Assembly: GCF_017348835.2 (NCBI RefSeq)
Contig: NZ_CP071375.1
Reading direction: 5' to 3' (one strand)
Source: Escherichia coli
GTDB lineage: Bacteria > Pseudomonadota > Gammaproteobacteria > Enterobacterales > Enterobacteriaceae
Length of the DNA: 64,000 nt
The notes under the pieces are model-generated. The model was not told where the DNA came from, made no database searches, and saw only the letters and a program-made list of their open reading frames with translations. Each line of letters begins with the position of its first letter. The stretch's first letter is position 1. Shown piece after piece: positions 14,150 to 62,644 of this stretch. A program made the translations under genes and the position numbers.

Positions 14150-14180
14150 TTAACCATTCCCATACAATTAGTTAACCAAA

Positions 14181-14211
14181 AAGGGGGGATTTTATCTCCC
14201 CTTTAATTTTT
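14181..14211 (+). terminator. Terminator-like hairpin after clpX (AGGGGGGAT-TTTA-TCTCCCCT followed by T-rich run)
   Basis: Imperfect G/C stem followed by TTTAATTTTT. Confidence 0.45.
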
Positions 14212-14226
14212 CCTCTATTCTCGGCG

Positions 14227-14253
14227 TTGAATGTGGGGGAAACATCCCCATAT
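14227..14253 (+). promoter_or_regulatory. Sigma-32 (heat-shock) promoter of lon: -35 TTGAAT, 13-bp spacer, -10 CCCCATAT
   Basis: Near-consensus sigma-32 elements read about 85-110 nt upstream of lon ATG; coordinates consistent with the lon start frame. Confidence 0.7.
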
Positions 14254-14336
14254 ACTGACGTACATGTTAATAGATGGCGTGAAGCACAGTCGTGTCATCT
14301 GATTACCTGGCGGAAATTAAACTAAGAGAGAGCTCT

Positions 14337-29762: not shown

Positions 29763-30621
29763 AATTGTGATTACGCATCACCCCTTCCTGAACGGTCGAG
29801 GCAACCAGTACGCCGTCCTGGGTATAAAACTCACCGCGCACAAAGCCACGTGCGCTGGACGCCGAGGTGCTCTCCACGCTATACAGCAGCCATTCATTCA
29901 AATTAAACGGGCGATGGAACCACATGGAATGGTCAATGGTGGCAATCTGAATCCCCGGTTCGAGAAAACCGATGCCGTGCGGCTGTAGAGCTACCGGCAG
30001 GAAGTTAAGATCAGAAGCGTAACCGAGCAGATACTGATGAACGCGCAGGTCATCCGGCACGCTACCATTTGCGCGGATCCACACCTGACGATGTGGTTCT
30101 GCGACGTGACCTTTCAGTGGGTTATGAAACTCCACCGGACGGACTTCCAGCGGACGATCGCAGATGAATTTATCTTTAAGCACTGGCGGCAGCAGGTGCG
30201 CCAGCGACTGGGCGATTTGCGTTTCCGAAGGCAGGCCATCAGGCGCTGGCGCGGACGGCATTGTTTTTTGATGTTCGAAACCCGCTTCTGGTGCCTGGAA
30301 AGAGGCCGTCATATAAAAAATCGGTTTGCCGTTTTGAATAGCAGCAACCCGGCGGGCGCTGAAGCTGTTACCGTCACGCAGCGTTTCGACATCATAAATA
30401 ATCGGCTTCTTACTATCGCCAGGGCGAAGAAAATAGCTGTGAAACGAATGTACCAGCCGCTCTTCAGGGACGGTCTCTTTTGCAGCATACAAGGCCTGCC
30501 CCACGACCTGGCCGCCAAATACCTGGCGTAAACCTAAATCTTCACTCTGGCCGCGAAAGAGTCCTTCCTCAATTTTTTCCAGATTTAACAATGTCAGTAA
30601 ATTTTTTAGCGCCTGACTCAT
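29761..30621 (-). CDS. tesB: Acyl-CoA thioesterase II TesB, 286 aa
   Basis: ORF-track 29761..30639 minus; start at [24 protein letters not shown]. Confidence 0.94.
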
Positions 30622-30838
30622 ATAACTCTCCAGTAACAAAGCTGCCGCAGCAAGCCAAAGTGAGTTGAGTATAACGCAAATTTGCTACTGGTCCGATGGG
30701 TGCAATGGTCTGAATTACGGGCTAATTACAGGCAGAAATGCGTGATGTGTGCCACAATTGTTGACGTTACTATTTTGTTAACCACTCTTCCGGCGAGGAA
30801 AGTTAGCCCGCTGGTGCATTGATAATAAGGAGAAATGA

Positions 30839-31411
30839 ATGAAACTCGTGCACATGGCCAGTGGTTTAGCGGTTGCGATTGCGTTGGCGGCTTGCGCAGA
30901 TAAAAGCGCGGATATTCAGACGCCAGCCCCGGCTGCAAATACGTCTATTTCAGCAACACAACAACCTGCTATCCAGCAACCGAATGTCTCCGGTACCGTC
31001 TGGATCCGTCAGAAAGTCGCACTGCCGCCTGATGCTGTGCTGACCGTGACACTTTCTGACGCGTCGTTAGCCGATGCACCGTCAAAAGTGCTGGCGCAGA
31101 AAGCGGTGCGTACTGAAGGTAAACAGTCACCATTCAGCTTTGTTCTGCCATTTAACCCGGCAGATGTTCAGCCGAACGCGCGTATTCTGTTGAGTGCGGC
31201 GATTACCGTGAATGACAAACTGGTATTTATCACCGATACCGTTCAGCCGGTGATCAACCAGGGCGGAACTAAAGCCGACCTGACATTGGTGCCGGTACAG
31301 CAAACCGCCGTGCCGGTTCAGGCCAGCGGTGGCGCAACGACTACCGTACCTTCGACTTCACCAACTCAGGTGAATCCGTCTTCGGCAGTTCCAGCTCCTA
31401 CGCAATATTAA
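30839..31411 (+). CDS. ybaY: Lipoprotein YbaY, 190 aa
   Basis: ORF-track full length; lipobox LAAC; Pro/Ala/Thr-rich low-complexity tail. Confidence 0.9.
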   Translation: MKLVHMASGLAVAIALAACADKSADIQTPAPAANTSISATQQPAIQQPNVSGTVWIRQKVALPPDAVLTVTLSDASLADAPSKVLAQKAVRTEGKQSPFSFVLPFNPADVQPNARILLSAAITVNDKLVFITDTVQPVINQGGTKADLTLVPVQQTAVPVQASGGATTTVPSTSPTQVNPSSAVPAPTQY

Positions 31412-31441
31412 GCGACATTAACCCTCTCCGCCCGGAGAGGG

Positions 31442-31831
31442 TTAGTAGTTCCAGCGATAACGCTGCAAGTCGATTTGCCCGCTTCCCGATACCATCACAC
31501 CTTCTGCCAGTAATGCCTGTCGCTGACGCTGTAAATCCGGTCCGGTTAGCGAAATTGTGCCGTGGCGATTAACCACCCGGTGCCAGGGTAAGGTGCTGCC
31601 TTCAGGGAGACGCTTTAACACACCGCCCACCTGGCGCGCGGCGCGGGGCGATCCCGCCAGTTTCGCCACATCACCGTAAGTGGTTACATAGCCTTCGGGA
31701 ATAGCGGCGACGATTTGCCAGACGCGTTGGGGAAATGAATCTTCTTTTTCCATCTTTTCTTCCTGAGGTAATTTTTCAGCATAATCTGGAAAAACGCCCG
31801 AGTGAAGTCGCATTGCGCAAGAAACCAGCAT
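31442..31831 (-). CDS. atl: Alkyltransferase-like DNA-damage recognition protein Atl (YbaZ), 129 aa
   Basis: ORF-track 31442..31852 minus; C-terminal sequence recognised; start chosen at second in-frame start to give 129 aa; alternatives at 31852 (TTG) and 31813 (ATG). Confidence 0.8.
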   Translation of the reverse strand: MLVSCAMRLHSGVFPDYAEKLPQEEKMEKEDSFPQRVWQIVAAIPEGYVTTYGDVAKLAGSPRAARQVGGVLKRLPEGSTLPWHRVVNRHGTISLTGPDLQRQRQALLAEGVMVSGSGQIDLQRYRWNY

Positions 31832-31907
31832 CTGGCACGCAATGGGTTGCAATTAGCCGGGGCAGCAGTGATAATGCGCCTGCGCGTTGGTTCTCAACGC
31901 TCTCAAT

Positions 31908-32021
31908 GGGGGCTCTGTTGGTTCTCCCGCAACGCTACTCTGTTTACCAGGTCAGGTCCGGAAGGAAGCAGCCAAGGCAGATGACGCGTGTGCCGGGATG
32001 TAGCTGGCAGGGCCCCCACCC
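31908..32021 (+). ncRNA. ffs: 4.5S RNA (signal recognition particle RNA), 114 nt
   Basis: Exact match to remembered 4.5S RNA sequence GGGGGCUCUGUUGGUUCUCCCGCAACGC...GGCAGGGCCCCCACCC; conserved SRP domain IV motif GGAAGGAAGCAGCC present; coordinates frame-checked against overlapping ORF-track translation. Confidence 0.95.
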
Positions 32022-32131
32022 ATTTCTGCCTCCCACCGTTTCGTCAAAAAATCCCAACATGGCTAAACTTTAACCACAACTGACGTCGCAAGAATTGTCT
32101 GGCTGCGCAGTACGCTTCGGAGGTATGTCTG

Positions 32132-32485
32132 ATGAAGTATGTTGATGGTTTTGTGGTTGCCGTTCCTGCCGATAAAAAGGATGCCTATCGGGAAATGGCC
32201 GCTAAGGCCGCGCCATTGTTTAAAGAGTTTGGCGCGCTTCGTATTGTCGAATGCTGGGCCAGCGATGTACCGGATGGCAAAGTGACCGATTTTCGTATGG
32301 CGGTGAAAGCGGAAGAGAATGAAGAGGTTGTCTTTAGCTGGATTGAATACCCTTCAAAAGAGGTCCGCGACGCTGCTAATCAAAAGATGATGTCGGATCC
32401 ACGGATGAAAGAGTTCGGCGAGTCCATGCCGTTTGATGGTAAGCGAATGATCTATGGCGGATTCGAGTCAATCATCGACGAATAG
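32132..32485 (+). CDS. ybaA: Uncharacterised protein YbaA (DUF1428), 117 aa
   Basis: ORF-track full length; MKYVDGFVVAVPADKKDAYREMAAKAAP. Confidence 0.9.
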   Translation: MKYVDGFVVAVPADKKDAYREMAAKAAPLFKEFGALRIVECWASDVPDGKVTDFRMAVKAEENEEVVFSWIEYPSKEVRDAANQKMMSDPRMKEFGESMPFDGKRMIYGGFESIIDE

Positions 32486-32526
32486 GTAGCGTGACGGGCT
32501 GTGCGGCGTGCCGTCAGCCCAAAAAT

Positions 32527-34077
32527 TCACAAATGTTGCTCGGCCCAGCGTAAGAAATCTTCTTTCGGTAATGCCTTGCTGTAGAGCCAGCCCTGACCGT
32601 AGTGCACGCCATGCTGGCGTAGCCACTCTTCTTGTTTACTGGTTTCGATTCCCTCCGCTACCATTTTCAGTTTCAGTGTTTTTGCCATTTCGATGATATG
32701 CGGCGTGACATTTTTATATTCCAGCGCATCAACGAAAGATTTATCGATCTTCAGAATGTCGACATCCAGATCCTGTAAATAACTTAAACTTGAATACCCC
32801 GTACCAAAATCATCAAGATAAATTTCATGGCCCGCCTCCCGGTAGCGAGAAATTATCGGGGCGCTGGTTTTCGGATCGGCAAACTCGCGTTCAGTGAGTT
32901 CAAGCGCGATCTGTCTGGGATTAACCTGATAGTGATTGATCATTTCACGCAGCAATTGCGGGATTTTTTCCGAGGTGAGCACGGTGGATTCAAGATTGAT
33001 CGAAATATGCTGCTGTGGATGCTGACGCAGCCAGTCGCCCATATCTTCAAAGACGCTTCTTATAATCAGTAGCGTCAATGGCTCAGAAAGGCCCGTTTGC
33101 TGTGCCAGCGGAATAAAACTATCTGGTGACAACCAACTACCGTCTGTCTGCGGCCAGCGCGCCAGTGCCTCAGCACCGACAATTTTGCCATTGGCTAAGG
33201 AGACAATCGGCTGATAGTGCACGCAAATATCACGATTTTCGATAGCATCCTGCAGCCGATGATGCGGTGACTGGATACGGCGCAAAATACGCAGCACAAA
33301 CATCGCTGCCAGCAGGCCAATCACCAACCCGAGCGGTAACCAAATAAAGACTTGCCGATGCCAGCCTTTCTGCAACATTTTCGTTGAAGCCCAGGTGATG
33401 ATCGAAATATTCATCTCCGGGAAGGGCAGGATATCGTAAATGATTCCATTATTTTCGATATGCTCACCGGGTGTTTTTTGTAGCCTGGTAATAATTCCCT
33501 GAGCAATTTCATCGCTGCTGGTTATGACAACGTTATGGGCATTGCCAATAATGGCGGCATCAATTTGCCATGAGCTATAGGGAATGACATCAATAAAGGA
33601 AGCGGGGTCGATCATGACGACATAATGTGCCGTTCCCATGGCGACCATGTAACGGATAATGCCTAAATCGTTATGCGATGTTAACCAGACACGATAACCA
33701 TCTTTCGAAATTTTACCTGGCTCGGGGAAGGTATCGGGCGGACTTTCATGCTCCAGAGACGAACACTGGGGAACGTTGTTATCGATATAAACCACTTCCT
33801 GAATATAGCGATAACTGTAAGATACCCGACGCATTTCCATGAGATGGGCTTCGCTACAGGCAGCGCCTTGCCATCTTTCCAGCTCTTGCAGCGCATCTTT
33901 CCCTTGTGTCGCCACCTTATTGGCCCGAATAGCGACGCGGGAGGAATAGGTATTCAGCTCTTCAATAAACGATGTTTCTACCTGCTGATGGGCCAGCCAG
34001 ATGCTTAAGCCGACAGGCAGCAATACTGAAATAATCAGTACTCCCGAAATAAGGCCGACCAGATGTCGTGTTCTCAC
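32527..34077 (-). CDS. pdeB: c-di-GMP phosphodiesterase PdeB (YlaB), CSS-motif sensor plus EAL domain, 516 aa (GTG start; upstream ATG at 34083 would give 518 aa)
   Basis: ORF-track 32527..34083 minus; EAL-domain motifs (QIALELTE, DDFGTGYSSL); N-terminal TM then periplasmic domain. Confidence 0.88.
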   Translation of the reverse strand: MRTRHLVGLISGVLIISVLLPVGLSIWLAHQQVETSFIEELNTYSSRVAIRANKVATQGKDALQELERWQGAACSEAHLMEMRRVSYSYRYIQEVVYIDNNVPQCSSLEHESPPDTFPEPGKISKDGYRVWLTSHNDLGIIRYMVAMGTAHYVVMIDPASFIDVIPYSSWQIDAAIIGNAHNVVITSSDEIAQGIITRLQKTPGEHIENNGIIYDILPFPEMNISIITWASTKMLQKGWHRQVFIWLPLGLVIGLLAAMFVLRILRRIQSPHHRLQDAIENRDICVHYQPIVSLANGKIVGAEALARWPQTDGSWLSPDSFIPLAQQTGLSEPLTLLIIRSVFEDMGDWLRQHPQQHISINLESTVLTSEKIPQLLREMINHYQVNPRQIALELTEREFADPKTSAPIISRYREAGHEIYLDDFGTGYSSLSYLQDLDVDILKIDKSFVDALEYKNVTPHIIEMAKTLKLKMVAEGIETSKQEEWLRQHGVHYGQGWLYSKALPKEDFLRWAEQHL

Positions 34078-34240
34078 CAGCATATCCTTATTAACACAGT
34101 GTAGGGAAAGTATATCTGATTGTGGAAAAAGGCTGGCAGGAGATAAGGAGGTAGAGCTGGTATTTCATGAAGTGATGGGTGGAAACGATCATTGTCATTT
34201 GACCAGGCGCAGAGCTTTACGCCTGGTATGTAACCCTAAC

Positions 34241-36713: not shown

Positions 36714-39866
<3,153 letters not shown>

Positions 39867-47551: not shown

Positions 47552-48846
47552 ATGAGTTATCAGGTCTTAGCCCGAAAATGGCGCCCACAAACCTTTGCTG
47601 ACGTCGTCGGCCAGGAACATGTGCTGACCGCACTGGCGAACGGCTTGTCGTTAGGGCGTATTCATCATGCTTATCTTTTTTCCGGTACCCGTGGCGTCGG
47701 AAAAACCTCTATCGCCCGACTGCTGGCGAAGGGGCTAAACTGCGAAACCGGCATTACCGCGACGCCGTGCGGCGTGTGCGATAACTGTCGTGAAATCGAG
47801 CAGGGGCGCTTTGTCGATCTGATTGAAATCGACGCCGCCTCGCGCACCAAAGTTGAAGATACCCGCGACCTGCTGGATAACGTCCAGTACGCTCCGGCGC
47901 GTGGTCGTTTCAAAGTTTATCTCATCGACGAAGTGCATATGCTGTCGCGCCACAGCTTTAACGCACTGTTAAAAACTCTTGAAGAGCCGCCGGAGCACGT
48001 TAAGTTTCTGCTGGCGACGACCGATCCACAGAAATTGCCGGTGACGATTTTGTCGCGCTGTTTGCAATTTCATCTCAAGGCGCTGGATGTCGAGCAAATT
48101 CGCCATCAACTTGAGCACATCCTCAATGAAGAACATATCGCTCACGAGCCGCGGGCGCTGCAATTGCTGGCGCGCGCCGCTGAAGGCAGCCTGCGAGATG
48201 CCTTAAGTCTGACCGACCAGGCGATTGCCAGCGGTGACGGCCAGGTTTCAACCCAGGCGGTCAGTGCGATGCTGGGTACGCTTGACGACGATCAGGCGCT
48301 GTCGCTGGTTGAAGCGATGGTCGAGGCCAACGGCGAGCGCGTAATGGCACTGATTAATGAAACCGCTGCCCGTGGTATCGAGTGGGAAGCGTTGCTGGTG
48401 GAAATGCTCGGCTTGTTGCATCGTATTGCGATGGTACAACTTTCGCCTGCTGCACTTGGCAACGACATGGCCGCCATCGAGCTGCGGATGCGTGAACTGG
48501 CGCGCACCATACCGCCGACGGATATTCAGCTTTACTATCAGACGCTGTTGATTGGTCGCAAAGAATTACCGTATGCGCCGGACCGCCGTATGGGCGTTGA
48601 GATGACGCTGCTGCGCGCGCTGGCGTTCCATCCGCGTATGCCGCTGCCTGAGCCAGAAGTGCCACGCCAGTCCTTTGCACCCGTCGCGCCAACGGCAGTA
48701 ATGACGCCACCCCAGGTGCCGCCGCAACCGCAATCAGCGCCGCAGCAGGCACCGACTGTACCGCTCCCGGAAACCACCAGCCAGGTGCTGGCGGCGCGCC
48801 AGCAGTTGCAGCGCGTGCAGGGAGCAACCAAAGCAAAAAAGAGTGA
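47552..48846 (+). CDS. dnaX: DNA polymerase III gamma subunit, 431 aa, produced by programmed -1 frameshift at 48835-48841 then Glu and TGA stop at 48844-48846
   Basis: Slippery heptamer A AAA AAG in frame at codons 428-430; -1 frame reads GAG TGA immediately after; established mechanism. Confidence 0.85.
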
Positions 48847-49483
48847 ACCGGCAGCCGCTACCCGCGCGCGGCCGGTGAATAACGCTGCGCTGGAAAGACT
48901 GGCTTCGGTCACCGATCGCGTTCAGGCGCGTCCGGTGCCATCGGCGCTGGAAAAAGCGCCAGCCAAAAAAGAAGCGTATCGCTGGAAGGCGACCACTCCG
49001 GTGATGCAGCAAAAAGAAGTGGTCGCCACACCGAAGGCGCTGAAAAAAGCGCTGGAACATGAAAAAACGCCGGAACTGGCGGCGAAGCTGGCGGCAGAAG
49101 CCATTGAGCGCGACGCGTGGGCGGCTCAGGTGAGTCAACTTTCGCTACCAAAACTGGTCGAACAGGTGGCGTTAAATGCCTGGAAAGAGGAGAGTGATAA
49201 CGCAGTATGTTTGCATTTGCGCTCCTCTCAGCGGCATTTGAACAACCGCGGTGCACAGCAAAAACTGGCTGAAGCGTTGAGCATGTTAAAAGGTTCAACG
49301 GTTGAACTGACTATCGTTGAAGATGATAATCCCGCGGTGCGTACGCCGCTGGAGTGGCGTCAGGCGATATACGAAGAAAAACTTGCGCAGGCGCGCGAGT
49401 CCATTATTGCGGATAATAATATTCAGACCCTGCGTCGGTTTTTCGATGCGGAGCTGGATGAAGAAAGTATCCGCCCCATTTGA
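47552..49483 (+). CDS. dnaX: DNA polymerase III tau subunit DnaX, 643 aa (full-length product)
   Basis: ORF-track full length; Walker A GTRGVGKTS; zinc-binding CGVCDNC. Confidence 0.97.
   Translation: MSYQVLARKWRPQTFADVVGQEHVLTALANGLSLGRIHHAYLFSGTRGVGKTSIARLLAKGLNCETGITATPCGVCDNCREIEQGRFVDLIEIDAASRTKVEDTRDLLDNVQYAPARGRFKVYLIDEVHMLSRHSFNALLKTLEEPPEHVKFLLATTDPQKLPVTILSRCLQFHLKALDVEQIRHQLEHILNEEHIAHEPRALQLLARAAEGSLRDALSLTDQAIASGDGQVSTQAVSAMLGTLDDDQALSLVEAMVEANGERVMALINETAARGIEWEALLVEMLGLLHRIAMVQLSPAALGNDMAAIELRMRELARTIPPTDIQLYYQTLLIGRKELPYAPDRRMGVEMTLLRALAFHPRMPLPEPEVPRQSFAPVAPTAVMTPPQVPPQPQSAPQQAPTVPLPETTSQVLAARQQLQRVQGATKAKKSEPAAATRARPVNNAALERLASVTDRVQARPVPSALEKAPAKKEAYRWKATTPVMQQKEVVATPKALKKALEHEKTPELAAKLAAEAIERDAWAAQVSQLSLPKLVEQVALNAWKEESDNAVCLHLRSSQRHLNNRGAQQKLAEALSMLKGSTVELTIVEDDNPAVRTPLEWRQAIYEEKLAQARESIIADNNIQTLRRFFDAELDEESIRPI
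48835..48875 (+). other. dnaX: dnaX programmed ribosomal frameshift cassette: slippery site A_AAA_AAG (48835-48841) plus downstream stem-loop CCGGCAGCCGCTACCCGCGCGCGGCCGG (48848-48875)
   Basis: Heptamer and GC-rich hairpin 6 nt downstream read directly; frame verified from the dnaX start. Confidence 0.9.
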
Positions 49484-56794: not shown

Positions 56795-56890
56795 GGTTCG
56801 TAGGCCAGATAAGGCGTTCACGCCGCATCTGGCATTTGGCATCTCGATGCCTGATGCGACGCTGGCGCGTCTTATCATGCCTACATATTT
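56795..56890. repeat. REP/BIME: two inverted REP units after gsk
   Basis: GTAGGCCAGATAAGGCGTTCACGCCGCATCTGGCA and GATGCCTGATGCGACGCTGGCGCGTCTTATCATGCCTAC. Confidence 0.8.
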
Positions 56891-62560: not shown

Positions 62561-62644
62561 ACACCGTCGCTTAAAGTGACGGCATAATAATAAAAAAATG
62601 AAATTCCTCTTTGACGGGCCAATAGCGATATTGGCCATTTTTTT
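62561..62644 (+). ncRNA. chiX: ChiX (MicM/SroB) Hfq-dependent small RNA, about 84 nt, with terminator hairpin GGCCAATAGCGATATTGGCC plus U7
   Basis: Sequence ACACCGTCGCTTAAAGTGACGGCATAATAATAAAAAAATGAAATTCCTCTTTGACGGGCCAATAGCGATATTGGCCATTTTTTT matches remembered ChiX including seed CUCUUUGACGGG; coordinates frame-checked. Confidence 0.9.

Follow-up and report, generated by a model that had tools for sequence, protein, structure and literature searches.

The 64,000-nucleotide stretch of Escherichia coli DNA analyzed here (the window) raises the question of what occupies the interval between atl and ybaA. The first-pass annotation, made from the letters alone, had described this interval as 300 bp free of genes except for a 4.5S RNA gene, ffs, recognized by its sequence. 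The gap does measure exactly 300 bp (31832-32131), and it is filled by ffs. The 114 nt of the plus strand from 31908 to 32021 begin with GGGGGCTCTG (also quoted as GGGGGCTCTGTTGG) and end with GGGCCCCCACCC (also quoted as GGCAGGGCCCCCACCC). In a direct comparison with E. coli K-12 MG1655, 114 of 114 positions matched NC_000913.3 476448-476561, which is annotated as the curated ncRNA "ffs, b0455, signal recognition particle 4.5S RNA." The proposed identity therefore stands with 0 mismatches, and the domain IV tetraloop region is unchanged. We conclude, with a probability of about 99%, that 31908-32021 is ffs, the single-copy gene of 4.5S RNA, and nothing of substance spoke against this reading. 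The product forms the RNA half of the E. coli signal recognition particle (SRP), the bacterial particle that steers membrane proteins to the membrane. The ffs gene of the window is an already known E. coli gene without variant features, and the gene itself holds nothing new.

The analysis itself shows that the sequence is identical to K-12 ffs and belongs to the RNA family, that its structure covaries, that it is a single-copy gene in conserved synteny, and that promoter and leader are conserved. For the transcription start, processing by RNase P and RNase T, binding of Ffh and FtsY, and essentiality, we rely on publications about the identical K-12 sequence. The window strain is E. coli but not K-12, as it differs from MG1655 by 28 single nucleotide polymorphisms (SNPs) in 4 kb (29960-33960). 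Statements on expression in this strain rest on K-12; because 31842-32208, comprising promoter, leader, gene, and 3' flank, shows 0 differences from MG1655, the published results transfer directly. The SNP nearest to ffs lies at 31841 (A in the window, G in K-12), 6 nt upstream of the -35 hexamer. The segment 31400-32500 is 100% identical to that of the pig isolate PE164. The features of the locus are collected in Table 1.

Table 1. Features of the ffs locus and its neighborhood (window coordinates)
Feature	Position	Strand	Size	Basis
ybaY	30839-31411	+		Mapping from K-12
atl (RefSeq: ybaZ, "DNA base-flipping protein")	31442-31831	-		Pfam PF01035; K-12 start maps to 31831
Predicted -35 hexamer TTGCAA	31847-31852	+		Sigma-70 scan, conservation
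Predicted -10 hexamer GATAAT	31870-31875	+		Sigma-70 scan, conservation
G+C-rich discriminator GCGCCT	31876-31881	+		Directly after the -10 hexamer
5' leader of pre-4.5S RNA	31882-31907	+	~26 nt	K-12 5' ends, identical sequence
Mature 4.5S RNA (ffs)	31908-32021	+	114 nt	K-12 identity, fold, covariation
Extent of RF00169 match	31916-32012	+		Rfam covariance model
Domain IV core GGUCAGGUCCGGAAGGAAGCAGCC (= GGTCAGGTCCGGAAGGAAGCAGCC)	31950-31973	+	24 nt	Mapping of the predicted fold
Candidate attachment site, empty (attB core TGGCAGGGCCCCCACCCATTTC)	32005-32026	+	22 bp	Direct repeat around the EFF60 island
Unpaired 3' overhang ACCC	32018-32021	+		Unpaired in the minimum-free-energy fold
ybaA	32132-32485	+		Pfam PF07237
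pdeB	32527-34083	-		Mapping from K-12

Family membership was assessed with Rfam covariance models, a check that the first-pass annotation had itself named along with the comparison to K-12 ffs. The model RF00169 (Bacteria_small_SRP, clan CL00003) matched over its whole length (model positions 1 to 97 of 97); the score of 68.1 bits exceeds the gathering score of 40, and the E value is 5.5e-13 for the whole window. Together with the K-12 identity and the synteny, this score supports the earlier assignment to ffs. In most E. coli genomes, the "SRP_RNA" feature given by PGAP corresponds to the 97-nt Rfam core only. The ends used here, which give 114 nt, agree with the curated K-12 record and fit a terminal helix with an ACCC overhang, and they are meaningful because the covariation reported below extends to nucleotides 1-5 and 106-110, outside the Rfam match. 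The true ends of the gene thus reach 8 to 9 nt past the feature that automated pipelines take from Rfam.

Other RNA models were also considered. A low-threshold Rfam scan of 31700-32200 returned SNORD20 at 19.8 bits, against a threshold of 43 and with an E value of 0.94, which is chance level. A tRNA or tmRNA reading of the region was rejected, since ARAGORN found no such gene in 31000-33000. Elsewhere in the window, Rfam matches above the gathering score were obtained for sraA (14170-14265, minus strand, 106.7 bits), the dnaX ribosomal frameshift element (48816-48880, plus strand, 96.8 bits), naRNA4/CssrE (56803-56881, plus strand, 71.4 bits), and sroB (62561-62644, plus strand, 82.1 bits).

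A single long hairpin of -57 kcal/mol is predicted for the 114-mer, with a z score of -3.15 relative to dinucleotide shuffles. At its apex, a GGAA tetraloop of the GNRA type (nucleotides 53-56, window 31960-31963) is closed by the pairs C52-G57, C51-G58, and U50-A59. Below it lie a symmetric internal loop of 4 x 4 nt (nucleotides 46-49 and 60-63) and an asymmetric loop of 4 x 1 nt, formed by ACCA at nucleotides 39-42 (31946-31949) opposite A67 (31974), which flanks the domain IV core. This core is the binding site of the Ffh M domain. It occurs once in the window, where 0 occurrences are expected even with 3 mismatches allowed, and this count, together with the Rfam E value, excludes a chance origin. 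In a scan covering one genome per species, the exact 24-mer was found in at least 120 genomes or contigs of Alpha-, Beta-, and Gammaproteobacteria, Actinomycetota, Bacillota, Planctomycetota, Chloroflexota, and others, and it is invariant in an alignment of 15 gammaproteobacterial homologues.

Covariation was measured on these 15 gammaproteobacterial sequences, all of the same long-hairpin form, by counting pairs on the E. coli structure. The E. coli pairing was retained in 92.3% of the alignment cells, and 18 of 42 pairs had changed on both sides. None of 500 shuffles reached the observed values for pairing and double changes, and sliding the 3' partners by 1 to 3 columns lowered pairing to 37 to 53%. 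The same helix was recovered independently by RNAalifold. The contig L117, labeled as a Klebsiella pneumoniae metagenome-assembled genome (MAG), was left out as probably mis-binned; its SRP RNA is of the type found at Burkholderiales loci (L023, L045, and L049) and not an enterobacterial 4.5S RNA.

The pattern of substitutions bears directly on whether the region might instead encode a small protein, its RNA-like features being secondary. Two open reading frames (ORFs) do exist mechanically on the plus strand, one of 60 amino acids with a GTG start (31802-31984), which the first-pass annotation had already called spurious, and one of 112 amino acids (31735-32073). Neither has a Pfam match at an E value of 0.01 or below, and neither MG1655 nor any of the PGAP-annotated E. 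coli records that were inspected has a coding sequence at the site, in line with the earlier verdict on the shorter ORF. Moreover, the 60-amino-acid ORF has its start upstream of the -35 hexamer and its stop within the RNA, meaning that its start codon would be missing from the main transcript. The substitutions between species are compensatory pairs across the hairpin and do not follow a codon pattern. We regard a protein-coding origin as extremely improbable, and the covariation effectively refutes it. For annotation, where alone the finding matters, this means that the 300 bp between atl and ybaA belong to an essential RNA gene that has been studied in detail and that two spurious ORFs can be dropped.

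The surroundings of the gene are those of K-12: ybaY, atl/ybaZ, ffs, ybaA, and pdeB follow each other in the same order and in the same orientations. Among complete E. coli genomes, the ffs 114-mer was present in 5,424 of 5,426, in exactly one copy each and, in 5,420 of these 5,424, at an identity of at least 99%; all 15 of the matches listed carry an ffs annotation. The gene is therefore a single-copy core gene of the species. Two of the 5,426 genomes gave no match, and two matches fell on records labeled as plasmids. Since ffs is known from the literature to be essential (PMC7049720, PMC5499578), these four cases suggest assembly or labeling problems.

A scan of 31600-32300 found a single sigma-70-like site, TTGCAA and GATAAT separated by 17 nt, which agrees with the consensus at 9 of 12 positions. 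We aligned the flanks of the window gene with those of Escherichia albertii, Citrobacter werkmanii, Enterobacter sp., Superficieibacter, and Photorhabdus. The -35 element reads TTGCAA, TTGCAT, or TTGCTA in these relatives, and GATAAT is invariant in all six enterobacterial sequences that include the upstream flank. On the strength of this conservation, the segment 31847-31875 most likely acts as the own sigma-70 promoter of ffs. In K-12, RNA sequencing placed the 5' ends of pre-4.5S RNA mainly at -26, with minor ends at about -127 and -153, while older reports give a leader of 22 to 24 nt (PMC5499578). The -26 end corresponds to position 31882 of the window, 7 nt downstream of the -10 hexamer. 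The leader is predicted to form a small hairpin with a 6-bp stem (GCGUUG-GUUCU-CAACGC, 31884-31900). Across four to five genera the stem is conserved and the loop variable; Photorhabdus has GCUUU...AAAGC instead.

The start of the neighboring atl/ybaZ gene is annotated inconsistently. The K-12 RefSeq record gives 129 amino acids (start at 31831), versus 103 amino acids (312 nt, start near 31753) in PGAP annotation elsewhere. The longest ORF (31442-31852, minus strand) begins at a TTG at 31852, inside the -35 hexamer of ffs, and the Pfam domain occupies residues 33-112 of the 129-amino-acid form. Positions -127 and -153, the approximate minor 5' ends of pre-4.5S RNA, would be antisense to this disputed 5' part of atl/ybaZ.

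Maturation has been described for K-12. The 5' end of mature 4.5S RNA is generated by RNase P, and cells are viable with 5'-extended 4.5S RNA (PMC5499578, PMC7049720, PMC4176162), while trimming by RNase T is reported to stop at CC and leave a 4-nt ACCC overhang (PMC3439924). This overhang matches the unpaired nucleotides at the 3' end of the window gene. With its conserved promoter, its leader, and the ACCC overhang, the sequence fits a precursor that is cut at its 5' end by RNase P and trimmed at its 3' end by exonucleases. Transcription in the window strain would then start near 31882 and yield a precursor with a leader of about 26 nt carrying the small hairpin; RNase P would cut off this leader and leave G31908 as the 5' end, and 3'-to-5' exonucleases, chiefly RNase T, would trim the 3' tail to ...ACCC at 32021.

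How transcription ends was addressed by a consensus scan of 31600-32300, in which no convincing terminator was found after 32021. One terminator-like hit (31899-31913) falls within the leader and the first nucleotides of ffs and does not exceed what shuffled sequences give. In the flank alignment, the 3' flank is conserved among enterics only as ACCCAUUUC and diverges beyond it. We infer that the 4.5S hairpin together with this short U-rich tail may serve as the terminator.

The mature RNA would thus be one long irregular hairpin whose apical domain IV carries two internal loops and the GGAA tetraloop and is bound to the M domain of Ffh. It would then act as a scaffold for the GTPases Ffh and FtsY in the cotranslational targeting of inner membrane proteins. 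In K-12, ffh and ftsY lie elsewhere on the chromosome. 4.5S RNA has been described as a scaffold for both the assembly and the relocation of the Ffh-FtsY GTPases during cotranslational targeting (PMC5499578).

The 3' end of ffs also marks a point of variation between E. coli strains. In about 67 of the 5,424 genomes, the match to 31400-32500 breaks directly after ffs. In E. coli EFF60, an insert of about 10 kb lies between ffs and ybaA, starting after the equivalent of position 32026 (occupied site at L002 6605-6627 and L003 ~37660-37690). The 22 bp that precede this point, namely the last 17 nt of ffs and 5 nt downstream, occur once in the window, where the site is unoccupied. The EFF60 insert ends with a second copy of TGGCAGGGCCCCCACCCATTTC, by which ffs is regenerated exactly, and the EFF60 ffs is identical to that of the window. 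The insert carries the gene of a tyrosine integrase (PF00589) about 100 bp away from ffs. It further codes for a resolvase and for DUF2188 and 8xMP proteins, and it has several ORFs without a Pfam match. DNA of the island integrase was found in 62 of 5,426 E. coli genomes (~1%) and never on plasmids. Integrase variants of 95.6% and 93.6% identity also lie directly after ffs with different cargo, and Citrobacter werkmanii carries an integrase protein of 99.4% identity after its ffs. Among sequenced phages there was no close relative, the best protein match being about 30% identical.

A more distant case was found in Stutzerimonas urumqiensis, where one scaffold carries a full ffs (L110 2824-2947) and, about 12 kb away, a 5'-truncated second copy that lacks the first ~10 nt (L111 827-950). 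An integrase gene lies about 0.8 kb after the first copy, and its product is 37.5% identical to the E. coli integrase over 240 aligned residues. The arrangement suggests a related element that targets ffs and makes a duplication of about 100 nt, much longer than 22 bp.

Elements of this kind leave partial copies of ffs behind in some strains, as seen in the 22-bp repeat of EFF60 and the truncated copy of Stutzerimonas, and one might ask whether the window gene is itself a decayed or horizontally acquired duplicate, for example a fragment displaced by an integrated element, and not the working gene. This seems most unlikely, as the window copy is of full length without a mismatch to K-12, stands behind its own promoter in the native ybaY-atl-ffs-ybaA-pdeB context, and is accompanied in the 64 kb by no second domain IV core or att core; furthermore, E. 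coli genomes that have ffs have exactly one copy. The window holds an intact ffs gene with the empty site at its 3' end, and the island is context and not a property of the window.

The chances are about even, in our judgment, that 32005-32026 is a live attB for a family of small islands whose tyrosine integrases target the gene of SRP RNA in Enterobacteriaceae. In the literature that could be searched, we found no account of ffs-targeting elements of this kind in E. coli. An ffs attachment site was reported there only for phage phiEf11, in Enterococcus faecalis (2025), along with sites predicted by bioinformatics for Streptococcus pneumoniae (PMC12540744). That ffs is a hotspot of integration, in about 1% of E. 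coli genomes, could be of interest to those who map genomic islands.

The arrangement resembles that of integrases targeting tRNA and tmRNA genes and that of phiEf11, in that a tyrosine integrase adjoins the 3' end of a stable RNA gene, which a short direct repeat regenerates. However, the EFF60 repeat restores ffs exactly, whereas phiEf11 alters 12 of the last 17 nt (PMC12540744), and, unlike phiEf11, the enterobacterial element is an island of about 10 kb without a close relative among sequenced phages.

As for the RNA itself, the window gene and K-12 ffs (b0455) are alike in all 114 nt, in promoter, leader, and 3' flank, and in neighbors and their orientation; what differs is the host strain. 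The 4.5S RNAs of Pseudomonas, Vibrio, Haemophilus, and Rheinheimera have in common with it the hairpin architecture, the domain IV core, and a GUGCCG motif in the 3' strand. The terminal and middle helices of other gammaproteobacterial 4.5S RNAs differ in sequence yet stay paired, which accounts for the 18 double-change pairs, and the Vibrio versions are a few pairs shorter. Unlike the 271-nt scRNA of Bacillus and the eukaryotic 7SL RNA, 4.5S RNA has no Alu domain. Its maturation by RNase P and exonucleases also differs from that of the Bacillus subtilis scRNA, which is reported to be matured by RNase III (PMC1935012). Bacillus scRNA and 7SL RNA carry the same domain IV (helix 8) core that binds Ffh or SRP54, and the Bacillus and Paenibacillus loci contain the same 24-mer as the ffs gene of the window.
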